Shown here one piece after another: positions 4,104-30,256 of a stretch of 64,000 bases of DNA; position 1 is the stretch's first letter; each line of letters starts with the position of its first letter. A program made the position numbers and the translations under genes. Source of the DNA: Rhodospirillales bacterium (GTDB taxonomy: Bacteria; Pseudomonadota; Alphaproteobacteria; Bin95); NCBI GenBank assembly GCA_038143065.1, contig JAYQLI010000035.1:2752894-2816893 (forward strand), written 5' to 3'. The notes under the pieces are model-generated. The model saw nothing but the letters and a program-made list of their open reading frames with translations. It had not been told where the DNA came from and made no database searches.

Positions 4104-5349
4104 ATGTCAGTGCGCCCAGTCCGCGGGACGGTTGATCTTTTTCCAGATGATATTCGTCGTCATCGTCGCGTAATAGAAACTGCTCGAGATCTTGCCGAAC
4201 TTTATGGGTTTGGAGAAATACAGACCCCTATTTTTGAATTTACGGAGGTGTTTGCGCGCACTCTTGGGGACGTTTCTGATGTAGTGACAAAAGAAATGTA
4301 CACATTTGAGGACCGTGGCGGAGAGAAAATTACCTTGCGCCCAGAGAACACTGCTGGTGTTGCAAGGGCTTATATTTCTGGGAAACTCCAAAACGAACTT
4401 CCGCTAAAATATTTCTATGCGGGACCCATGTTTCGATATGAGCGACCGCAAGAAAGGTCGTCAGCGTCAGTTTCATCAAATTGGTGTTGAATTGTTTGGC
4501 GTTCCATTCCCGTCAGGGGACGTCGAGGTAATAGCTCTTGCTGCCCAATTGTTAGATAAACTGGGAATGCGTGATCACTGCGTGCTAAACCTCAATACTT
4601 TGGGCGATACAGAAAGCCGTGAAACTTACCGTGCCGCATTAGTTGAATATTTTTCTTCACATAAGGCCAGGTTATCTTCCGACAGTCTCGCCCGTCTTGA
4701 TAAAAACCCGTTGCGTATCCTTGATTCCAAGGATGAGAGTGACAAAAAAGTGGTTGAAGGAGCCCCCTCTTTCAATGAATTTCTTACAACTACTGCTTCG
4801 GACTTCTTCGCTGAAGTGCGTCAGGGCTCGATGAGTTAAATATTTCTTATGTTCTGAACCCACGCCTCGTAAGGGGGCTTGATTATTACTGCCATACAGC
4901 TTTTGAGTTTGTAACAGATGCATTAGGTGCTCAAGGGACTGTCATAGGTGGGGGCGCTACGATGGCCTCATTGGTATAATGGGGGAGCTAGCACACCTGG
5001 AGTGGGTTGGGCTGGTGGTATAGAACGGCTCGCAATGCTTGCTGATCAGACATTGCCTGAAATAACCACTTCTAAACCTATTTCGCTAATTCCAATTGGC
5101 GTTGCTGCAGAGCAAAAATTAAAGCAACTTGCCTATGATCTCAGGGGGAATGGTCAACATGTCGATATTTCTTTCTCTGGAAATCTCAAAAGGCGCATGC
5201 AGAGGGCTGGCAAGCTTGGTGCCCGGTTTGCATTAATTGTTGGTGAGGACGAGTTGCACGCTAACAAAGCTACACTCAGAGATATGGAGAGTGGCTCGCA
5301 GGAAGAGATAAGACTGCAAGATGTAGTTAAGCGGTTATCTGATCTATGA
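4104..5349 (+). CDS. hisS: Histidyl-tRNA synthetase; indels near 4452, 4830 and 4950-4980
   Basis: [55 protein letters not shown] in the shifted frame, GIERL, anticodon-binding C-terminus. Confidence 0.95.
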
Positions 5350-6419
5350 GCTTTGATGAAAAACTTGCACAGGTTTTAAGTCGTGTTGAAGAATTATCAG
5401 CACGCATGTCAGGCGAAGAGCTATCGGCAGAAGAGCTGGTGAAACTTTCTAAGGAGTATAGTGAACTTGACCCTATTGCCGCTGCCATCCGAAACCTTCA
5501 AGCTCTGCGTGATGAATTTAGTGATCTAGAAGAAATTCTGAATGACCCTGAGTCCGATGCCGAGATGCGCCAACTTGCAGAGCTTGAGAAGCTAGACTTA
5601 GGTCAAAAAATTGAAACCGCAGAGCGTGATGTAATGATTGCTCTGCTGCCAAAAGATGCGGACGATGAGCGCAACGCAATCTTAGAAGTGCGGCCAGGAA
5701 CAGGAGGCGACGAGGCTGCCTTATTCGCAGCAGATTTGTTTAGGATGTATCAGAGATATGCTGAGTCACAAGGTTGGAAGTTTGAACCTTTATCTATCAG
5801 CGAAACAGAACTTGGCGGTCTAAAAGAAGCTGTTGCAGAAATCGGTGGTCGTGGTGTCTTCGCAAAGATGAAGTTTGAATCAGGAGGCCATAGAGTGCAG
5901 CGTGTTCCAACAACGGAGCAAGGTGGGCGCATCCATACCTCTGCAGCAACCGTGGCTGTATTGCCCGAGGTTCAGGAAGTCGATGTTTTAATAGACGAAA
6001 AAGATCTCAGGATTGACACGTTCCGATCTCAGGGTGCTGGTGGACAGCACGTCAATACAACTGACTCTGCCGTCCGGATTACACATATTCCGACTGGTAT
6101 TGTCGTCAACCAGCAAGATGAGAAGTCGCAACATAAAAATCGCGCCAAGGCAATGACTATCTTACGTGCTAGAATTTATGAGGCTGAGCGTGAGCGTCGA
6201 GATGCCGAGCGAGCAGCAGAGCGGCGAACGCAGGTAGGGTCTGGTGATAGATCTGAGCGAATTAGGACTTATAATTTCCCTCAGGGCAGGGTTACAGATC
6301 ACCGTATTAATCTAACTCTTTACAAAATCGACCAAGTTGTAGCTGGAACAGGTTTAGCTGAGTTTATAGATGCATTAGTCGCTGAAGATCAGGCTTCACG
6401 ACTGGCTAATATGGAATGA
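5346..6419 (+). CDS. prfA: Peptide chain release factor 1
   Basis: GGQ motif (GAGGQHVN), HRVQRVPTT (PxT), [17 protein letters not shown]. Confidence 0.97.
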
Positions 6420-7270
6420 CGGCTGATGAGTGGATTAAGGCGGCTTCCTATCGATTGACGGGACTGGAGCGGCCCCGTGCTGAAGCCAGGAATTTACTTG
6501 CTTTGGCATTGCAGGTTTCACCGGAATACTTGTTTTCTTACCCAGAAACTGAAATGTCAGCTGAGAATATTTCAACTGCTGAATTATTCATTGAACGTCG
6601 TATTGTAGGTGAACCTCTTTCAAGAATTTCCGGTTTTCGTGAGTTTTGGAGCCTAAAGTTTTGCATCGGCGATGAGGTTTTAGATCCTCGGCCTGACACC
6701 GAGATTTTAGTTGAAGCCGGCTTAGAGGCTATCAAGCAACGGGAAATTCCTTACATTTTGGACTTGGGAACTGGCTCAGGTTGTATTCTGTTGGCTTTGC
6801 TATCCGAAATTCGAGACGCATTCGGTATAGGGATTGATCGGGCCAAGGGCGCTTGCAGATTTGCAAAGAGGAACAGTCAAAGGCTTGGGCTTTCTAATCG
6901 TTCTGCATTTCTATGCGCAGATTGGGGAAGGGCCCTCAAAGCCGTAACTTCGCAATTTCAGGGGTTTGATCTGATTGTCACAAATCCCCCATATATAGGA
7001 ACGGTTCAAGGTCCGCGGCCAGACACGGCCACTGAAAGTTTTGACCCACCCTCGGCCCTTTATGCTGGCATTGATGGTCTTAGTGCTTACACAGAATTAA
7101 GTCACCAAATCCCCAAGCTTATGGCGGCCAATGGTACCGTCGTGATTGAAATAGGTGAGGGACAAGCTGCATCAGTGAATAAGATATTCACTGATGCTGG
7201 CTTGAGGATGAAAGGTGAATTCTATGCTCTTGGGGGGCATTTGCGCTGCCTAACCTTCAAAGTTGCTTAA
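6416..7270 (+). CDS. prmC: Release factor glutamine methyltransferase
   Basis: [19 protein letters not shown]; overlaps prfA stop. Confidence 0.95.
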
Positions 7271-7473
7271 AATTACGCAGATTTTTCAATAAAGATGTTG
7301 GCATTTCATATAAATTAGGTATACGTACTATTGCGCTTAAGTGGAGTTTGCTCCTAAGGCGTGCCATTTTCACAGACACAGCATAAGACCACCTTCAAAT
7401 TGATGGTGTCGTGAAGTTGTAGTTTGGGTTGTAAATATGGCCACCCCCGCAACTTAGAGCGGATATTCAGACT

Positions 7474-8184
7474 ATGAATCAAAGACGGCCGCGTGGTCGA
7501 AATAACAACAATAATCGTGGTAGGCACCAAAATCCACGGAATCAGACCTTTGACAGTAATGGTCCGGGAGGCCGGGTGCGTGGGTCTGCTTCGCAAGTGT
7601 TGGACCGTTATCTGGCGCAAGCGCGTGACGCTCAGGCAGCTGGAGACTCCATCCTTGCAGAAAACCTGTTCCAGCATGCAGAGCACTATTATCGAGTGCT
7701 AAGTGCAGCAAATGCTGCCATGGAACAGCAGCAACGAGAACGTCACGGCTCTTACGAGGACCGACGCTCCTATCGCCCTGAAAACACAGATGCTGAGCAT
7801 AATGCTCGATCCGAAGATCAGAGCGATCGCGATGACCGGCAGGACCGTTCTGAGCGCTCTGATCTGCGTGAGGATCGCGATTCTGATAATTATGTTGCGA
7901 CGGAGGATGCAGAGCCGCGCAATCCTCGTAGAGTATCAGGCCGCGTAAGGTCTGCAGAAGCAGAAATGGGTGAAAGCGATAGCGATCAGGCCGTTATAGA
8001 AAATGACACCCCCCAACCGCGCCGCCGAACTGCTCGTACTTCGAAGCCGGTAGAGGAGCCCAGGCTTGAATTAGAAGGTGAAAATACAGAGGAGCTCGAC
8101 GTTGCATTCTTAAAGGCGGAGCCTAAGCCTCGGCGCCGGCGTCGTACTTCTGCAGAGACAGAACCAGCTGAAACATCAGATTGA
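7474..8184 (+). CDS. DUF4167-family protein with disordered charged tail
   Basis: FDSNGP..RVRG..Q..DRYLAQARDA..GD...AEN..QHAEHYYR; usual position after prmC in Alphaproteobacteria. Confidence 0.85.
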   Translation: MNQRRPRGRNNNNNRGRHQNPRNQTFDSNGPGGRVRGSASQVLDRYLAQARDAQAAGDSILAENLFQHAEHYYRVLSAANAAMEQQQRERHGSYEDRRSYRPENTDAEHNARSEDQSDRDDRQDRSERSDLREDRDSDNYVATEDAEPRNPRRVSGRVRSAEAEMGESDSDQAVIENDTPQPRRRTARTSKPVEEPRLELEGENTEELDVAFLKAEPKPRRRRRTSAETEPAETSD

Positions 8185-9029
8185 TTGCAGTGTCGACTAA
8201 AATACTAACTTCCCAGCAGTCGCAGAGTTATAAAAACGACGGTTTTGTATCACCAATACAGGTGCTTTCAGCGGAGGAAGCGCTTAGGTATCGTAAGCGA
8301 TTTGAGGTTTATGAGCATGAGCATGGTGGGTGGTATGAGCTATCAAAAGGTCAGAAATTATATTTGATACAAACATGGGCGGCCGAACTCGCTTCTCATC
8401 CTAAAGTCCTCGATGGTGTCGAAGATGTATTGGGTTCTGATTTGTTGGTTTGGGGATTGAGTCTTTTCGTTAAAGAAGCCGGGGCGCCAGGCTTTGTCTC
8501 ATGGCATCAAGATTCCACCTATTGGGGACTATCTAAACCCAAAGTGGTCACGGCATGGATAGCGCTTTCACCAGCAACTATTGAGTCGGGATGTATGAAA
8601 ATGCTTCCCGGCTCTCACTCGATGGACCAAAGACCTCACAAAGATACGTTGGCTTCTGATAACCTTCTTACGCGAGGCCAAGAAATCCAGATGAACATCA
8701 ATGATTCAGATGGCGTGTTCTGTCCTCTTGAAGCTGGCGAAATGTCACTTCATCACGTTCGTACGGTTCATGCGTCTGAACCTAATAATGGTTCAGATCG
8801 ACGTATTGGTGTTGCCATTCGATATATTACTCCCGATGTCGCACAAGTTAATGGTGCAAAAGATAGTGCATGGCTTGTTCGGGGAGAGGACCGATTTAAC
8901 AATTTTATTCTCGAGAGTCCGCCTAAGTCAGATATGGACGAAGCGGCTCTAGCCGAGCGGGAACGGATTATGAGTCTTCGGCAAGATGTCCTCTATAAAG
9001 GCGTCGAGGGGACCCCTGCAAAACTCTAA
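8181..9029 (+). CDS. Phytanoyl-CoA dioxygenase (PhyH) family Fe/2OG enzyme
   Basis: WHQD (HxD), VTAWIAL, GCMKMLPGSH, HAS..N..DRRIG. Confidence 0.88.
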   Translation: MIAVSTKILTSQQSQSYKNDGFVSPIQVLSAEEALRYRKRFEVYEHEHGGWYELSKGQKLYLIQTWAAELASHPKVLDGVEDVLGSDLLVWGLSLFVKEAGAPGFVSWHQDSTYWGLSKPKVVTAWIALSPATIESGCMKMLPGSHSMDQRPHKDTLASDNLLTRGQEIQMNINDSDGVFCPLEAGEMSLHHVRTVHASEPNNGSDRRIGVAIRYITPDVAQVNGAKDSAWLVRGEDRFNNFILESPPKSDMDEAALAERERIMSLRQDVLYKGVEGTPAKL

Positions 9030-19611: not shown

Positions 19612-20555
19612 ATGGGTTCCTCTGTCTTTATCGACGGTGAGGCTGGCACAACTGGCCTTCAGATATTCGACCGATTGAAGGATCGGAAGGACATAAGTCT
19701 CATCCGCCTTGATGACATAGAAAGGAAGGAATTAAAGGCGCGACAAGAAGCTCTTAATGCGGCTGATATTGCTATCTTATGCCTTCCTGACGATGCAGCT
19801 CGCGAAGCGGTTGATCTTATTAGAAATACAACCACCCGGGTAATTGATGCTTCAACAGCCCATAGAACGGCTGAGGGTTGGACATATGGTTTCCCGAATA
19901 TTCAAAAGACCAAAGACGCCTGATTGGTGAATCTAATAGAATAAGTAACCCTGGCTGCTATTCGGTCACCTCAATTGCGATGCTACATCCGATTATTGCA
20001 GCTGGCTTAATTAAGGCAGATTGGCCAATTACAATAAACGCTGTGTCTGGATATTCTGGTGGAGGAAAATCACTTATTGGTGAATTTGAGGGTGAAAATG
20101 CATCGCCCAATCAGCAAGTAGTATTTTCTTACGCGTTGAGCTTAAAGCATAAACATCTCCCGGAAATTAAGCGCTGGGGCGGCCTTAGTCATAATCCAAT
20201 TTTTGAGCCGCATGTGGGGCGTTATCATCAAGGAATGATAGTTAATATTCCTCTGCCTCTTTGGGCGATGCCAGATAAGCCAACACCCGTAGCAATCAAT
20301 CAGACACTCGCTGCCCATTATGAAAATGAGCCGTTTGTTGAGATTGCACCGCTAGGTCCACCTATGGGTTCAGACCGTTTGGATCCTGAGTGTTTAAACG
20401 GTACGAATAAACTTCGGATTCATGTGCTTACTAATCCAGATGGGGATGCTGTGGTATTGTCAGGCGTTTTGGATAATTTGGGTAAGGGCGCATCTGGCCA
20501 AGCAGTGCAGACATTGAATTTCTTGATTGGTTCCAGCGAAGATACGGGATTGTAA
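19612..20555 (+). CDS. argC: N-acetyl-gamma-glutamyl-phosphate reductase type 2; frameshift near 19893
   Basis: [52 protein letters not shown]. Confidence 0.93.
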
Positions 20556-24090: not shown

Positions 24091-24999
24091 TTATCCGTAC
24101 TTGCTCTGAAGTAGCCATCTCACCCAGTTGCTATAAAAAATACATGAATTGCTCCCCCAAGTTTGTTTAGGCTCTTGGTTAGGGTCGTCATCTGGATAGT
24201 AATTTTCAGGTAAGGATATTTCATTACCCTTCTGAAGGTCTCGACGGTATTCAGCATCTAATGTGAGAGCGTCGTACTCAAAGTGATTCAAAACGTGAAG
24301 GTGTTGCAAACGTTTGTCAAATAGTGCGCCAAGCCCAGACTGTTCTGAAAAAAGAAGCGGTTTTAAATGAGAAAATTTTCTCAAATCGTCTATTTTGGTC
24401 TCAGTCCAACGAGAAACAGGCATTGATGGTTTTGTATCTAGAGATTTTAAAAAAGGTAGGTCTGCTTCACAGAGTGTGTGCTCGTAAACACCAAATTTCT
24501 TCGAAGCCATTAAGTGCTTTGGAATATCATAGTAGTGGTAAAGTGCAGCTTGGGCTCCCCAGCAGAGACTTAGAAGTGGAAGCCCGTTGGTACCATTTTT
24601 CCCCCGGACCCAATCTAAAATTTCTGTCATTTCTCTCCAATAGATAACATCTTCAAACGGCAGTATTTCTATAGGGGCTCCAGTTATTATAACCGCATCA
24701 AACGATGAGTTTGGTCCCAAAGCTGGCCAACGTTTGTAAAATTGATCAAGGTGTCCTGGGGGTGCATTCTTTGCGGCATAATTTGACGGTGCAGCAAAAG
24801 TCAGCGAAACATTTTCGTTCGTTTGGCCAAGGACCCTGGCTAATTGGAGTTCTGTATCCAATTTTTTGGGCATCAAATTAAATACACAAATTTCAAGGCG
24901 ACGGGTGATATCCATGCTGCCTTCGGTAGTGTACACATCTAAGCCTTCGGCCGCGAGAGAAGCTGCGGCCGGTAAATTTTCTGGAAGAATTATACTCAT
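24091..24999 (-). CDS. metA: Homoserine O-acyltransferase of the MetA family, predicted O-acetyltransferase
   Basis: NLMPKK..TE.Q, TGAPIE (Glu at the specificity position indicates acetyl), catalytic CWGAQA, HFEYD, NYYPDDDP. Confidence 0.9.
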   Translation of the reverse strand: MSIILPENLPAAASLAAEGLDVYTTEGSMDITRRLEICVFNLMPKKLDTELQLARVLGQTNENVSLTFAAPSNYAAKNAPPGHLDQFYKRWPALGPNSSFDAVIITGAPIEILPFEDVIYWREMTEILDWVRGKNGTNGLPLLSLCWGAQAALYHYYDIPKHLMASKKFGVYEHTLCEADLPFLKSLDTKPSMPVSRWTETKIDDLRKFSHLKPLLFSEQSGLGALFDKRLQHLHVLNHFEYDALTLDAEYRRDLQKGNEISLPENYYPDDDPNQEPKQTWGSNSCIFYSNWVRWLLQSKYG

Positions 25000-25949
25000 C
25001 CAGCAATGTTCCGATTGCGTGATTCAAGACGAGTTCTGCAGGTTGCAATATACCTGTTAGCTGTTTCTGTGCCGAAGGGATTTTCTTTAATTTCTCGCAT
25101 GAGGGCGTTGTAAAGAATTTCCATAAAGTTCTCAGGGTCAGGAGTGGTATCGGTGTTAGGGCCGAATAGTTCGGCAGCGTCGATAGTCACACCAAAGCGC
25201 GTTGCCATGCGCTCATACCTCGGTTTTCTAAACTCTAGTAATTCTGGAAAAAGTGGTCTGGCAAACTCTATTGGGTTTATGCCAACGCCATCTTCAGGTG
25301 TCTTCTCAAGCTTTGGGCCTATGAAATTAGGGTTGTAGAAAAGCGGTTTGGGATGGCTTCTAGCTCGTTCCTTTAAAGCTTCTTCTGCGTAGGCGTCCGC
25401 TCTTATGTAAAGAATGAGCGAGTTGTCTATTAGGGGCCTAATGACCGGGTCTTCTGGATCATCAGGGGTAACGATTTCACACAGAGAACCAGATGCGTCG
25501 TTTACGAAAGAACTACAACTATAAATATTCCAAGATTTGGAGATGAAGTGAGGTACGTCCTTCATTGATTGGATCTCAGCCTGTCTGTAGAGATTTTGTC
25601 TCTGAAGAAATTCTGTTTTTTTGAGGCCGCCAAATTCTGGGTCGCCATAGATGCCAAGAAATGTGGAAACAGGCTCTAGATTATCTACCGATATATTATG
25701 ACCAATAAAAATTGAGTCGGACCGTAATAAATTTGCGACGAATGGATCTTCCATGGACATAATTTTGAATTTCACGTTATCCAAAATTGGTTCAGACAGA
25801 TAACGCGTCCCGATCCGATAATCGGCCGAATAATGAAACCAACCTCCATCGCGTCTGAGCGTTTTGGAAAGTGTTGTCTTGCCAACCCCAGACATTCCTA
25901 GAAGCGAGATGGCATGCGGCATTTGGGAGAATTCAGTCAGATCGATCAT
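24996..25949 (-). CDS. Uncharacterised P-loop ATPase/kinase-like protein coupled to metA
   Basis: Walker A GMSGVGKT, WFHYSADYRIGTRY, DASGSLCE, PKPLFY; stop overlaps the metA start (ATGA). Confidence 0.8.
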   Translation of the reverse strand: MIDLTEFSQMPHAISLLGMSGVGKTTLSKTLRRDGGWFHYSADYRIGTRYLSEPILDNVKFKIMSMEDPFVANLLRSDSIFIGHNISVDNLEPVSTFLGIYGDPEFGGLKKTEFLQRQNLYRQAEIQSMKDVPHFISKSWNIYSCSSFVNDASGSLCEIVTPDDPEDPVIRPLIDNSLILYIRADAYAEEALKERARSHPKPLFYNPNFIGPKLEKTPEDGVGINPIEFARPLFPELLEFRKPRYERMATRFGVTIDAAELFGPNTDTTPDPENFMEILYNALMREIKENPFGTETANRYIATCRTRLESRNRNIAG

Positions 25950-26067
25950 GAGTAAGGTAGACTTATTATTTTCCTGAAAGGTCGCGGATGATAGGGCCAG
26001 ACTTGAGGAATGCAAGCGCTGGTTAACTATTGGCAGTCGTGTCTGGGCATCTTATATGGCGTAGACA

Positions 26068-26556
26068 ATGATTACTTCACGATCAATTATGTTAACGGCT
26101 GCCTTTGACCGACTTGACCGCGGTGCGATGGAGATAGCTGCCACTGCTCTGGCTGCTAATCTTCAACTTGGTGATTGTATTGTGTTGGCGGGTCCTCTTG
26201 CTGCCGGCAAGACCACTTTCGTTCAGGCGCTAGCTAAAGCCCTTGGTGAGGTGGATGAGATCACAAGTCCAACATTCACCCTTGCTCACTTCCACACTAA
26301 TGGCCGTCTTCCGTTGTTACATATTGATGCCTATCGCCTAGAGAGTAGTCACTCATTTAAAGATCTTGCTTTAGACGATTTTTACGAAACCCACGTAACC
26401 GCCATTGAATGGGGTGAGAAATTTATAAATTTTTTGCCAGAATATTATAGAGTTGAGTTAGTTCCTGATGGAGAGGATACTCGTCGTCTCATTGTCAGTG
26501 TCCCCGCACAAAAAGATGAGAATTTGAAAAAAATTTCTAGGGCACTCGGCAGATGA
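26068..26556 (+). CDS. tsaE: TsaE-like ATPase (t6A pathway)
   Basis: GPLAAGKTT, ITSPTFTL, HIDAYRL, IEWG. Confidence 0.88.
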   Translation: MITSRSIMLTAAFDRLDRGAMEIAATALAANLQLGDCIVLAGPLAAGKTTFVQALAKALGEVDEITSPTFTLAHFHTNGRLPLLHIDAYRLESSHSFKDLALDDFYETHVTAIEWGEKFINFLPEYYRVELVPDGEDTRRLIVSVPAQKDENLKKISRALGR

Positions 26557-27188
26557 CACTTACACTTTGCCTTCATTCATCCTCGGCGAAGCCATCTGTA
26601 TTTGTTTTCCGAGATGGTCAGAAATTCGCACCAAAAATCGATAATTGTATAGGGGATCCTGCATCTGGGCCTTCAATTGCAGAATTAGCAGCAGATGCTC
26701 TCTCAGCTGCTGATGCCGGTGCAGATGATGTAGACCAGATAGCGATTGATATTGGTCCTGGAAGACTTAGTGCTGTTAGAGCTGCTGTAGCCTTTACGAA
26801 TGCTTTTAGTTTTGGATTGGGTAAGCCAGTTCTCCCTATTATTTCAAGTTTTGCAGTCGGTTTACTTGCTGAGAGAAAATTTGGATTACCTGCAATTGTG
26901 GTCCATAAATCGGCAGGGGGTACAGCTTTTGTAGGGCGTGTTGTAAACGGCTCTTTGGAAACATTACGTCATGGTTCCATAGATAAAACAGTCAGATTAG
27001 TTGCCAAAGGATTAGAATCCGTATCCCTCGTTGGGGCACCAGCCTCTTTGCTGAAAGATATAGAAGTAACACAGATGGGGAATCCAGAAATTTCAGATGA
27101 AATATTCCCTGAGCTCATCAAAATTGGAGAGTTTGTGGATGCTCCTGTTCACCCAATCACAGAACAATCGGCTTTGATTAATGTCTAA
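26553..27188 (+). CDS. tsaB: Divergent TsaB-like protein
   Basis: IAIDIGPGRLSAVRAAVAFTNAFSFGLGKPV resembles TsaB IAVxxGPGSFTGxRxG; between tsaE and tsaC. Confidence 0.65.
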   Translation: MTLTLCLHSSSAKPSVFVFRDGQKFAPKIDNCIGDPASGPSIAELAADALSAADAGADDVDQIAIDIGPGRLSAVRAAVAFTNAFSFGLGKPVLPIISSFAVGLLAERKFGLPAIVVHKSAGGTAFVGRVVNGSLETLRHGSIDKTVRLVAKGLESVSLVGAPASLLKDIEVTQMGNPEISDEIFPELIKIGEFVDAPVHPITEQSALINV

Positions 27189-27756
27189 AGAAAGTGCTTT
27201 TAAAGCCGCCAATACTCTTCAAGCTGGAGGTGTTATCTTAGCCCCAACAGATACGGTCTATGGGCTAATGGCATTGCCTTGTCACGACGATGCCAGGGCG
27301 AAAATTTTCAGGCTGAAGAGGCGCCCTGAACATATGAACCTGCAGCTACTTTGCCCAACTGCTTTCGATCCCAAGGATATAGGTGCAATCGTACCTTCAA
27401 TTGCGGCAGAACTTTTGCGTTGCGATGATATTCGTTCAAAAATTACCTTTATCCTGCCACTGGATCTGTCTGAAAAGCCAAGATGGTTGTCTGATCGTGT
27501 TGAGGTAGGAATAAGAATTCCGGCTGCTTCTTCTCTACAGGAGATGCTATTAAGCACTGGGCCTGTATTTGCCACATCAGCGAATGCGCATGGCAATAAG
27601 CCGGGTAAGACCGTGAGTGCAATACTCTCCCAACTAGATGGTTCTCCAGACTTTGTATGGGATGCTGGGCCGCTATCTGATGAGGCCTCCACAGTAATTA
27701 ATTTCAATATTGACCCTCCTGTAGAACTTCGGCGAGGTGCGGCTGGAGATCTCTAA
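27181..27756 (+). CDS. tsaC: Threonylcarbamoyl-AMP synthase, YrdC-only (TsaC-like)
   Basis: PTDTVYGL, KRRP (KxR), GIRIP, TSAN, ASTVI, LRRGA. Confidence 0.85.
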   Translation: MSKESAFKAANTLQAGGVILAPTDTVYGLMALPCHDDARAKIFRLKRRPEHMNLQLLCPTAFDPKDIGAIVPSIAAELLRCDDIRSKITFILPLDLSEKPRWLSDRVEVGIRIPAASSLQEMLLSTGPVFATSANAHGNKPGKTVSAILSQLDGSPDFVWDAGPLSDEASTVINFNIDPPVELRRGAAGDL

Positions 27757-27770
27757 ATTTGGTGTTCATT

Positions 27771-28765
27771 ATGACTGAACAGCTAATTTTAGGTATTGAA
27801 TCCTCTTGCGATGATACAGCTGTTGCGCTGGTTTCTGAGACAGGTGACGTAATATCCGCAATTACACAAAACCAGGTGCGGATTCATAAAGAGTGGGGAG
27901 GTGTATTTCCCGAATTAGCTAGTCGAGCGCATGCGGCTGAAATTATCCCAACTATCAAAGCTGTAATGGCTCAAGCCAATGTTAGTTTGGACTTAATTAG
28001 GGCTATCGCTGTCACTCGTGGCCCAGGACTTATTGGCCCATTAATGGTCGGGGTAAATTCAGCAGCTGGCCTTGGAATGGCTTGGGGGAAGCCGGTAATC
28101 GGCATCAACCACCTTCGCGGTCATTTGCGCAGTGCAGCCTTAGAAGGTGGAAATGTGAAGTATCCAGCCTTGGTGTTGCTGGTCTCTGGTGGCCATACAT
28201 TACTCGCTCTAATGACTAACCCGGATGACGTGAAAATTCTTGGCTCTAGTAGAGATGATTCTGTAGGTGAGGCCTATGATAAAACAGCAAGACTACTCGG
28301 TCTTGGATTTCCAGGTGGGCCAGAGATAGATAAACTCGCCAAACTTGGAAGACCGAATATTGAATTTCCACGTCCGATGTTGAGAGAAGGACTTGAATTC
28401 TCCTTCTCTGGGTTGAAGGCCGCCGTTGCTCGATATGTTGAGCGATACCTGATAGTGAGTCTAAGGATGTGGCGGCTTCATTTGTAGCCTCAGTACTTGA
28501 TGTTTTAGCAAGTAAATGTGCTATGGCCTTAAAAGAGACCAAAGCCTCCTCTTTGGTTGTAGTGGGTGGTGTGGCGGCAAGCCCGCAAGTTCGTCATCGG
28601 ATGGAAGAAGTCGCAGTCAGTGCAGGAGCTGAGCTTTCTTTACCCCCTCTGAAATGGTCAACTGACAATGGTGCAATGATAGCATTGGCTGGATGGGATT
28701 ATGTTAGGTCAGGGCGGTATCCATTGCTCAGACCTGTTGCTCGGCTTTCAATCCAGGATTTTTAA
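27771..28765 (+). CDS. tsaD: TsaD-like carbamoyltransferase; 1-nt deletion near 28448
   Basis: LGIESSCDDT, PELASRAH, GPGL, NHLRGH, LVSGGHT, GEAYDK..RLLGL.FPGGP, FSFSGLK; next frame GGVAAS and TDNGAMIA. Confidence 0.9.
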
Positions 28766-28796
28766 GTGCAAGCTTTCTCTAATTTTGGAGAATCAA

Positions 28797-29678
28797 ATGC
28801 AGAAAACGTCCGAAGATACTAGAATTATCTTAGACCCACTTGGGTATGCTTTGGGCGCTGAAATTAGCGGTTTAGATATATCGCTTCCGCCAAATCGGAA
28901 GGATGTTGAGGCGGTAAATGCTATCTGGCAGGAACACCATGTTATGGTTTTTAGAGGTAGAAAGTTGCAGCCAAGTGAGATTGTAAATTTTGCCCAAGAA
29001 TTTGGTCAGTTAGATGACCATGCTTCAACCCCATTCTACAGGCATAAAGATTTTCCCCAACTGCTGCAAATTACTAATCGCTCAATAGATGGAAGACCTT
29101 CTGAGACCCGAAACACTGGTAGAAATTGGCATTCTGATTATTCTTACACGGGGCGGCCGGCAGCGGCATCAATGTTGTACTGCGATCAGAGACCGCCCGT
29201 CGGTGGTGACACCATGATTGCTAAGATGGTTCGGGCTTATGAGACTCTCTCTACTACGATGCATGGCATCGTTGTTAATCTCCACGCTGTTTATGATATT
29301 TCATTAACTGCCGGTTTAAACGAGCGTGACCCTGACAAAACGAAAGAAGTTCGATTGCTGAATCCGCCCATCGCTCATCCAGCGGTTCGGGTACATCCAC
29401 GAAGTGGGAAGCGCGCTCTCTACGTGTCGGAACGGGTATCTCATTTTCACGGAATGACAAGATCAGAAAGCAGGCCCTTGATAGACTTTTTGTGCTCTCA
29501 CGCAACCCAGCCAGAAAATATCTATCGCCATGTGTGGCAAGAGGGAGATTTAGTGTGTTGGGATAATCGCACGGTGATGCATATCGCGCTTGCTGATTTT
29601 GACGAGGGCAAGCCCCGTCATATGTTGAGAGCTACAGTGCTTGGAGAGCCATCTGGTTTCATTGTCGGAGAACATTAG
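28797..29678 (+). CDS. TauD/TfdA family Fe(II)/2-oxoglutarate dioxygenase
   Basis: LGAEISGLD, WHSD (HxD), GGDT, HPAVRVHP.SGKRALY, WDNR..MH; GGAG RBS. Confidence 0.9.
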   Translation: MQKTSEDTRIILDPLGYALGAEISGLDISLPPNRKDVEAVNAIWQEHHVMVFRGRKLQPSEIVNFAQEFGQLDDHASTPFYRHKDFPQLLQITNRSIDGRPSETRNTGRNWHSDYSYTGRPAAASMLYCDQRPPVGGDTMIAKMVRAYETLSTTMHGIVVNLHAVYDISLTAGLNERDPDKTKEVRLLNPPIAHPAVRVHPRSGKRALYVSERVSHFHGMTRSESRPLIDFLCSHATQPENIYRHVWQEGDLVCWDNRTVMHIALADFDEGKPRHMLRATVLGEPSGFIVGEH

Positions 29679-29728
29679 GCCAAGCTAACAGCTTCATAAC
29701 TAACAGGCCTGCCTGTCAGTTATGGTGA

Positions 29729-30256
29729 TTATCCGTTCTGATGCATCCAGCGAGCATGGTTGGGTGCCCGCTTTGTTTGAGTCCATTCCTCAAGCATTTC
29801 CCATTTGACGTCATCTAATTTTTTGCGCATCTCCGTGGTGCCCGTATTCACCGCCAATTCACACCGGTGTCCATTTGGATCGAAAAAATAAATTGATTTG
29901 AAGATGGTGTGGTCGACCGGACCTATAACCTCAATCCCATCAGCTTCCATTTTGGCCTTAGCATTTTCAAGTTCTGCGAGTGTTGAAACCTTAAAGGCTA
30001 AATGCTGCACCCAAGCCGGTGTGTTGTGATCTCTACCCATTGCTGGTTTCGTTGGTAGTTCAAAAAACGCAAGAACATTTTCGCCTCCAGCATCCAAGAA
30101 TACATGCATATAAGGCTCAGGCTCTTTTGTTGAAGGGACTTGGTCTTCAGCGATCGCAAGTATAAAATCCATGTTGAGGTATTTGCCATACCATTCAACC
30201 GTCTCTTTTGCATCCCTGCATCTGTACGCCACATGATGCACACCTTGAAGTTTCAT
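29729..30256 (-). CDS. VOC/glyoxalase family protein
   Basis: HHVAYRC, YMHVFLD, LAFFE, HLAF, SIYFFDPNGHRCE. Confidence 0.88.
   Translation of the reverse strand: MKLQGVHHVAYRCRDAKETVEWYGKYLNMDFILAIAEDQVPSTKEPEPYMHVFLDAGGENVLAFFELPTKPAMGRDHNTPAWVQHLAFKVSTLAELENAKAKMEADGIEVIGPVDHTIFKSIYFFDPNGHRCELAVNTGTTEMRKKLDDVKWEMLEEWTQTKRAPNHARWMHQNG

Follow-up and report, generated by a model that had tools for sequence, protein, structure and literature searches.

The window analysed here, 64,000 nucleotides (nt) of contig JAYQLI010000035.1 from a Rhodospirillales bacterium (assembly GCA_038143065.1, GTDB lineage Bin95), contains between positions 26068 and 29678 the genes tsaE, tsaB, tsaC and tsaD of the pathway for the tRNA modification N6-threonylcarbamoyladenosine (t6A), followed on the same strand by the gene of a TauD-family dioxygenase. 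Most probably, this is the sole t6A operon of the genome and belongs to a type, called EBCD here after its gene order, that was acquired as a whole and was followed by the loss of the native genes, with the dioxygenase uninvolved. TsaC would make threonylcarbamoyl-AMP from threonine, bicarbonate and ATP, and TsaD, with TsaB holding it and the ATPase TsaE driving its cycle, would put the threonylcarbamoyl group on A37 of the ANN-decoding tRNAs. The five same-strand genes named in a preliminary description of the window were confirmed by the listing of open reading frames (ORFs) and by Pfam searches, and are as follows.

tsaE, 26068-26556, + strand: P-loop ATPase subunit of the t6A transferase complex (PF02367, 106.7 bits; TIGR00150 equivalog, 92.3 bits, cut-off 60.1)
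tsaB, 26553-27188, + strand: TsaB-like ASKHA protein, divergent dimerisation subunit and TsaD paralogue (PF00814, 38.6 bits, cut-off 24.8)
tsaC, 27181-27756, + strand: short, single-domain threonylcarbamoyl-AMP synthase, truncated in the window at its 3' end (PF01300, 102.7 bits)
tsaD, 27771-28765, + strand: catalytic threonylcarbamoyl transferase, in the window in two pieces, 27759/27771-28487 and 28469-28765 (PF00814, 226 and 52.8 bits)
TauD/TfdA-family Fe(II)/2-oxoglutarate dioxygenase gene, 28797-29678, + strand (PF02668, 214.1 bits, cut-off 27); the ORF as listed begins at 28701, the likely start being the ATG at 28797, which is preceded by GGAG

Copy number and identity of the tsa genes

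The preliminary description had taken the five genes for a second, paralogous tsa system beside housekeeping genes located elsewhere, in which the dioxygenase would tailor the product into a variant A37 modification or a ureido or carbamoyl small molecule. In favour of this, all four tsa genes are present in a compact and divergent set, the clade of alphaproteobacterial housekeeping TsaDs does not include this TsaD, and the dioxygenase gene is kept beside the operon within the genus. However, no canonical tsaB, tsaC or sua5, tsaD or tsaE was found in the rest of the genome. The assembly (G000) comprises 4.63 Mb in 52 contigs and is 97.6% complete with 5.5% contamination. In six-frame Pfam searches of it, PF00814 matched the TsaD (in two pieces) and the TsaB of the cluster and nothing else, PF02367 matched the cluster TsaE only, and PF01300 matched the cluster TsaC and two other loci. 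One of these, on contig C33, is a frame-broken HypF with acylphosphatase, zinc-finger, YrdC and Kae1-like parts. The other (L007, G000:C35:1205750-1206478) encodes a divergent YrdC-like protein of 243 amino acids (aa) that scores 38 bits and is flanked by an amidohydrolase-like and a transporter-like ORF, as judged from their translations. Tblastn searches of the genome with TsaD (two queries), TsaE and Sua5 from sister genera led to the cluster only, Sua5 giving no match at E <= 1e-3.

The nine other genomes of the genus gave the same picture. Each has one TsaD and one TsaE, and in all nine the in-cluster TsaC is the sole strong match to the YrdC family (58-122 bits, the 58-bit match in G005 being cut by the contig start); a weak YrdC-like gene (34-38 bits) is also present in eight. 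Hence neither this genome nor its nine congeners has a second tsaD, tsaB, tsaE or Sua5/TsaC gene. Since, in addition, TsaD, TsaB and TsaE are confined to the cluster in all five carriers tested in other lineages, and since the dioxygenase gene is missing from all 72 clusters found there (both described below), a paralogous system appears extremely improbable.

The protein assignments were assessed against equivalog models, motifs and solved structures. As tsaD is broken in the window, TIGR03723 was run on the intact 343-aa orthologue of a 97% identical relative (L017), which scored 377.1 bits, above the cut-off of 296.1. The NHxxxH, GGHT and TDN motifs, whose residues have established functional roles in TsaD, align to those of solved TsaD structures. 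In TsaC, K-R-R-P and T-S-A-N align with the KxR/SxN motifs of Sua5 (2eqa), whereas YciO has neither in the same alignment; a passage of PMC4615747 gives this KxR/SxN tetrad as the criterion that parts TsaC/Sua5 from YciO. Between the more distant congeners, TsaB has an identity of only 41-46%. The position of its gene between tsaE and tsaC is kept in 60 of the 72 homologous clusters outside the genus. From the sole-copy status and the conserved motifs, the product would be plain t6A.

Relatives of the operon and its descent

The preliminary description had also called the arrangement atypical for Alphaproteobacteria, and comparison with the two sister genera of the same family (g2 and g3) bore this out. 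The block from tsaE to the dioxygenase gene is present in eight of the nine other genomes of the genus, the ninth being cut off within tsaD by the end of its contig. In contrast, none of 20 TsaD loci from outside the genus (8 from g2, 6 from g3 and 6 from other alphaproteobacterial families) has tsaE, tsaB, tsaC or the dioxygenase gene within 1.5 kb, and where positions were compared, in four complete genomes, TsaE and TsaD are 81 kb to 3.2 Mb apart. A long Sua5 (183-197 bits, open frames of at least 314 aa) was found in 24 of the 27 g2 and g3 genomes, two of the remainder having weaker or truncated matches and one having none; its Sua5_C domain was shown in one genome (G016, g2). The identity to the proteins of g2 and g3 is 43-47% for TsaD, 31-39% for TsaE and 28% for TsaC against Sua5. 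By comparison, the products of neighbouring genes of vertical inheritance are closer: the P-loop protein encoded next to the operon is 66-70% identical to its g3 counterparts, bar two fragmentary matches in one fragmented genome, and the dioxygenase is 68-70% identical to its g2 counterparts.

Clusters of the same type were found in other lineages by searching the contigs of 185,579 species with a seed alignment of six TsaC sequences from the genus, which left 80 loci. Eight of these belong to the genus itself, seven of them not independent of the loci already used (L165 lies on the same contig as L017); the other 72 were counted. On one strand and in the order tsaE, tsaB, tsaC, tsaD, the genes are present at 60 of the 72 loci. 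At four loci E, C and D were found with TsaB undetected between them, five have C and D only (four of them cut by contig ends and one rearranged as C-D-E-B), two end after tsaC, and one shows TsaC alone. The TsaD proteins of these loci are 57-67% identical to that of the window (median 63%). The carriers belong to the Acidobacteriota (many of them Pyrinomonadaceae), the Actinomycetota (Pseudonocardiales, Mycobacteriales and Streptosporangiaceae), the Bacteroidota and the Alphaproteobacteria (Rhodobacteraceae, Brevundimonas, Rhizobiaceae and a Rhodospirillum), and further include one Chromatiaceae and KSB1. No flanking gene is common to the EBCD clusters across phyla.

Five carriers were tested for further copies, namely a Runella, Yoonia sediminilitoris, Labedaea rhizosphaerae, a Rhodospirillum and the chromosome of an alphaproteobacterial metagenome-assembled genome. 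In all five, TsaD, TsaB and TsaE are confined to the cluster (for TsaE, bar sub-threshold P-loop matches), and in two of them, the Yoonia and the metagenome-assembled genome, the cluster TsaC is the sole YrdC-family gene. The Rhodospirillum has just one other YrdC match, in an open frame of 776 aa that is presumably HypF.

The type is rare among Alphaproteobacteria. When 200 genomes were sampled evenly across the families of the class, 194 gave a TsaD match (E <= 1e-40), in three of which TsaD is 54-61% identical to that of the window. All three carry the cluster, and the next two (47-48%) have TsaD alone. With G000 included, an EBCD-type TsaD is thus present in 4 of 195 genomes of the class with a TsaD match. 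The sample includes G081, which is flagged as unpublished and gave an ordinary match of 44%; no claim depends on it.

A search with a single piece of TsaD had given only TsaDs of at most 54% identity and had suggested an orphan lineage, a reading that was discarded as an artefact of exact-peptide seeding once the TsaC alignment had brought up the relatives; a search with a single TsaC sequence gave three loci only.

The trees agree with the distribution. From 108 TsaD sequences read, L071 (424 aa) and L079 (11 aa) were dropped for their length, leaving 106 rows, and the broken TsaD of G000 and the truncated one of G004 were left out. The quick tree of the 106 rows contained a starred clade of 22 alphaproteobacterial TsaDs, and the ten rows of the genus fell outside it, on a stem of 1.64. 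Approximately unbiased (AU) tests were run on a hand-picked subset of 44 rows and rejected a single TsaD clade of the genus with g2 and g3 (difference in log-likelihood 40.1, p-AU 0.0007); the grouping of the three genera into one family comes from the genome taxonomy and not from the tree. The TsaD of the window branches apart from the housekeeping TsaD of the family. A further tree of 67 rows combined 27 cluster-type sequences, hand-chosen for spread, with the 44-row set minus L041, L045, L047 and L066. Here the 32 TsaDs of cluster type all fall into a single clade, apart from the 35 others, with a support of 100 in the Shimodaira-Hasegawa-like approximate likelihood-ratio test (SH-aLRT) and a stem of 1.47. 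Inside it are a clade of Acidobacteriota (99), a clade of Actinomycetota (99) and a mixed clade (96) in which a Chromatiaceae row and a KSB1 row join those of Bacteroidota. The EBCD type is thus a distinct and coherent clade with a patchy distribution in at least four phyla and the candidate division KSB1.

The most likely route by which the EBCD operon would have replaced the scattered tsaD, tsaB and tsaE and the long Sua5 in the ancestor of the genus is the acquisition of the whole operon, followed by the loss of the native genes. Acquisition is favoured because TsaD identity across phyla exceeds that within the family, because the family clade was rejected and because the switch from Sua5 to TsaC agrees with both. 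The direction and number of the transfers are what we infer from these patterns. Vertical descent would instead require that the native genes were rearranged together, that Sua5 lost its C-terminal domain and that all evolved fast, with no transfer. Such a history would fit the G+C content of the operon (0.45-0.47, like that of the genome), the repeated loss of the SUA5 domain documented in a passage of PMC10321239 and an AU test in which a position of the genus as sister to all sampled Alphaproteobacteria was not rejected (p-AU 0.46). However, an accelerated evolution would reduce the identity to all sequences, whereas TsaD has kept a much higher identity to the cluster types of Acidobacteriota, Actinomycetota and Bacteroidota than to its own family and joins them with full SH-aLRT support; TsaE and TsaC show the same pattern. 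Together with the rejected family clade, this makes vertical descent very unlikely.

Several points weigh against whole-operon acquisition of a plain t6A pathway. The p-AU of 0.46 is one of them, and the alphaproteobacterial members, including this genus, are basal and not resolved within the EBCD clade; because of these two results, ancient paralogy with differential loss would be a possible history as well. All trees were quick searches with SH-aLRT support only, and the groups tested were named after the first tree had been viewed. The search for a donor identified none, the G+C content not being deviant and no trace of an insertion being found: the site beside the conserved P-loop/metA gene pair in g3 holds neither tsa genes nor the dioxygenase gene within 1.5 kb. 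As to the product, TsaB scored 44.2 bits on TIGR03725, below the cut-off of 69.3, and TsaC scored 108.7 bits on TIGR00057, below the cut-off of 123.2; the long stem of the EBCD clade could mark a functional change and not history alone.

The last three points would also suit a module that everywhere makes a different N6-carbamoyl-adenosine instead of t6A, for instance with another amino acid, as would the presence of a second YrdC-like gene in some clusters of the Pseudonocardiales. Against such a product stand the canonical KxR/SxN tetrad of TsaC, the metal-site motifs of TsaD and its score above the equivalog cut-off, and no extra gene that could supply another substrate is kept across phyla; we give a different nucleoside a small chance. 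The second YrdC-like gene was noticed at four Pseudonocardiales loci (L272, L273, L277 and L287), where it lies just upstream of tsaE, about 1.3-1.9 kb before tsaC, and its product is 26-28% identical to the TsaC of the window.

The plain t6A operon preferred here was compared with known systems. It shares its four protein families with the Escherichia coli type of pathway (TsaC/YrdC with TsaD-TsaB-TsaE, 'DEZ'), including a short TsaC with the KxR/SxN motifs. It differs from that type in that all four genes form one overlapping operon, whereas the tsa genes of E. coli are scattered, and in that its TsaD falls into a separate clade. The Gram-positive tsaE-tsaB-rimI-tsaD operon (ydiB-E in Bacillus subtilis, with rimI between tsaB and tsaD) has the same order of E, B and D with one gene between tsaB and tsaD; because that place is taken here by tsaC and not by rimI, the operon encodes a complete pathway. 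The loci of Acidimicrobiia and Bacillota in which tsaE lies near tsaD have no tsaC and fall outside the EBCD clade of TsaD. In the alr-groEL1 operon of Mycobacterium tuberculosis, tsaE, tsaB and tsaD are co-transcribed, according to PMC5335608. The Sua5 (long TsaC2) of typical Alphaproteobacteria has the same catalytic domain and performs the same synthesis of threonylcarbamoyl-AMP; in the sister genera it carries the SUA5 C-terminal domain and is encoded at a separate locus, whereas this genus has the short TsaC. Horizontal transfer of single genes and swaps between Sua5 and TsaC are documented in PMC10321239. TsaN (PMC10484737) and TobZ and HypF (PMC10321239) are fused YrdC-like/Kae1-like enzymes, in which the domains forming threonylcarbamoyl-AMP or carbamoyl-AMP are joined to the transferase domain. 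Here the proteins are separate and the genes united, and TsaB and TsaE are present, unlike in those three; both mark the tRNA-dependent bacterial system.

Neither an operon of the tsaE-tsaB-tsaC-tsaD type nor its transfer was found in the full-text literature searched, though gene-neighbourhood tables in supplements (for instance Supplementary Table 4 of PMC12506659) may list it. The tsaEBCD cassette is likely to be a self-sufficient, transferable module that has repeatedly displaced the native t6A genes in several phyla. Chemically it would be an ordinary housekeeping t6A pathway, and its interest is evolutionary. If the displacement of whole operons is true, one exchange can replace an entire essential complex connected with translation, co-adapted though its parts are, and tsaC between tsaB and tsaD would serve as a marker for annotating the type.

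The dioxygenase gene at the 3' end

The WHsD...H...R residues of the dioxygenase align with E. coli TauD (1gqw) and other TauD structures and comprise the HxD...H iron triad. The protein has a full-length Pfam match and shares the triad and the C-terminal Arg with E. coli TauD and the TfdA/AtsK family. It differs from taurine dioxygenase proper, scoring 183.2 bits on the taurine dioxygenase equivalog NF007104 against a cut-off of 313, and among solved structures it is closest to dioxygenases of taurine and phenoxypropionate. The family is large in this genome, with 44 TauD-family Pfam matches, some of which are pieces of split genes. A first look at genomes of the same bacterial family gave 21-66 TauD candidates per genome, which suggests that the expansion is family-wide.

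Three observations speak for a link between this gene and the operon, contrary to its proposed lack of involvement. It follows tsaD in eight of nine congeners at a junction of 31-42 nt, while the DNA beyond is rearranged in six. The 31-nt gap between tsaD and the dioxygenase gene in the window holds no terminator-like site; the scan found no more promoter and terminator sites than in shuffled sequence and is thus uninformative on transcription units. Finally, one 131-nt contig from an RNA library bridges the gap, although such contigs do not prove a single transcript, as RNA libraries can contain DNA. Because the gap is without a terminator-like site and is bridged by this contig, read-through into the dioxygenase gene is plausible, and the gene is probably co-transcribed with the tsa operon. 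Some functional coupling in this genus may therefore exist.

The neighbourhood survey called for by the preliminary description, which had proposed a tailoring oxygenase, gave a divided answer. Conservation beside tsaEBCD held within the genus and failed beyond it, as none of the 72 EBCD clusters outside the genus has a TauD gene beside it, which leaves synteny at the level of one genus as the only support for a tailoring function. An orthologue with 68-70% identity is present in six of ten g2 genomes, away from the tsa genes, and in none of the 17 g3 genomes (E <= 1e-70). At the six g2 loci, a homologue of the sulfite exporter TauE lies beside the TauD gene in two, a second TauD paralogue adjoins it in three, an unannotated ORF of about 220 aa adjoins it in five, and an MR_MLE or enoyl-CoA hydratase orthologue is present in three; TsaD, TsaB and TsaE were found in none. 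Because of these orthologues, the dioxygenase gene is best seen as native to the family, with the operon having ended up next to it. It would be read through from the operon without a role in t6A synthesis, and is probably a functionally unrelated passenger; that it has no part in the pathway is what these comparisons lead us to infer.

At one g2 locus (L209 in G016, G016:C36:17000-30000, 4220-8367), about 2 kb separate the TauD orthologue from long Sua5, with the MR_MLE and enoyl-CoA hydratase genes between them. No Sua5 match was found at the other five g2 loci, which reach at most about 6.5 kb from the TauD gene; for two of these genomes, the distance between the TauD gene and Sua5 is 14 kb and 40 kb. 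Given these other loci, the proximity in G016 is probably a coincidence, and it was set aside as a meaningful link.

A more specific role can be considered, in which the operon is the sole t6A system and the dioxygenase hydroxylates threonine or t6A, leading to hydroxylated t6A by a bacterial route not yet described. The hydroxylated t6A (ht6A) of echinoderm mitochondria is made by the t6A enzymes from hydroxy-threonine, as reported in a passage of PMC9654439, and because these enzymes use hydroxy-threonine, the supply of the hydroxy-amino acid would suffice for ht6A. The conserved junction in front of rearranged DNA, the lack of a terminator-like site and the contig spanning the gap would all suit this route. 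However, the g2 orthologues stand away from the tsa genes and near TauE, a second TauD or MR_MLE and enoyl-CoA hydratase genes, no other EBCD cluster has the dioxygenase gene, and the nearest solved relatives act on taurine and phenoxypropionate. As the TauD family is hugely expanded in this genome, a chance neighbour is likely, and hydroxylation of t6A or its precursor is credited with only a slight chance.

Assembly defects and neighbouring genes

The junction lengths given in the preliminary description are correct for the window sequence. The tsaE stop and the tsaB start share ATGA (26553-26556), tsaB and tsaC overlap by 8 nt (27181-27188), 14 nt separate the tsaC stop (27754-27756) from the tsaD ATG (27771), and the spacer between tsaD and the dioxygenase gene is 31 nt (28766-28796). 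The 14-nt gap, real in the window, is created by a deficit of 2 nt at 27749/27750, which also shortens tsaC; in L017, tsaC encodes 199 aa and overlaps the start of tsaD. Likewise, tsaD is present as had been described, but its frame is split in the window, which had gone unnoticed. Alignment to L017 and to an 86% identical relative (L018), both of which have an intact 343-aa TsaD, traced the split to one C missing from a CCC run at about 28447-28449.

To these positions, contigs of the Logan collection from four public runs of four studies were aligned over 25900-29900; two runs are DNA (labelled as estuary metagenomes) and two are RNA libraries (labelled as seawater and salt marsh). An extra C behind 28447 and an extra TC behind 27749 were present in all four runs at 100% of the depth, the four being not fully independent, as one DNA run is possibly the sample of origin. 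Because all four carry the restored bases, both defects are either mistakes of this assembly or changes private to it. Once the TC is put back, the end of tsaC falls within the start of tsaD, and therefore all four tsa genes overlap or abut; in the genus, tsaE, tsaB, tsaC and tsaD would form one translationally coupled operon. The operon is also attested in nature by metatranscriptome contigs from two studies that cover it. A programmed frameshift in tsaD was rejected as an explanation, as 28440-28487 contains no slippery site and the four runs carry the in-frame sequence. The case shows that homopolymer indels in a long-read assembly can make an essential gene look broken.

Further indels were seen in the same region. 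A blastn comparison of the window with L017 over 11.5 kb gave five, namely those in tsaD and at 27750, 19893, 22380 and 24091. At 19878-20555, the sequence is one C short in a CCCC run at 19893 compared with a 97.6% identical relative, and the ORF encodes the semialdehyde dehydrogenase dimerisation domain alone; here too, the assembly probably has a frameshift in a homopolymer. Elsewhere in the genome, the broken HypF (G000:C33:62648-66162, L005/L006) spans at least three frames, and the neighbouring hypE-like and hypD-like ORFs also look fragmented, so that this region contains either further assembly indels or a decaying cluster for hydrogenase maturation.

Two genes divergent from tsaE lie upstream of the operon.

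metA, 24091-24999, - strand: HTS match of 295 bits
Gene of a 339-aa P-loop protein, 24996-26015, - strand: weak P-loop matches only

On the left, the block that the genus conserves ends with this pair. Six more distant congeners have a block of metA, the P-loop gene, tsaE, tsaB, tsaC, tsaD and the dioxygenase gene, and the DNA beyond both of its ends differs from that of the window. The pair is also kept in all 17 g3 genomes and was not found in g2, the P-loop protein alone giving matches at E <= 1e-10 in 17 of 17 g3 and 0 of 10 g2 genomes. On the 3' side of the dioxygenase gene, the Pfam scan of the window showed a minus-strand gene for a glyoxalase-fold protein and aromatic amino-acid genes. 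The metA gene overlaps the P-loop gene by 4 nt. The P-loop protein belongs to no clear family, the only hint being that its P-loop scores 24 bits on a model for non-canonical homoserine kinase (cut-off 197).

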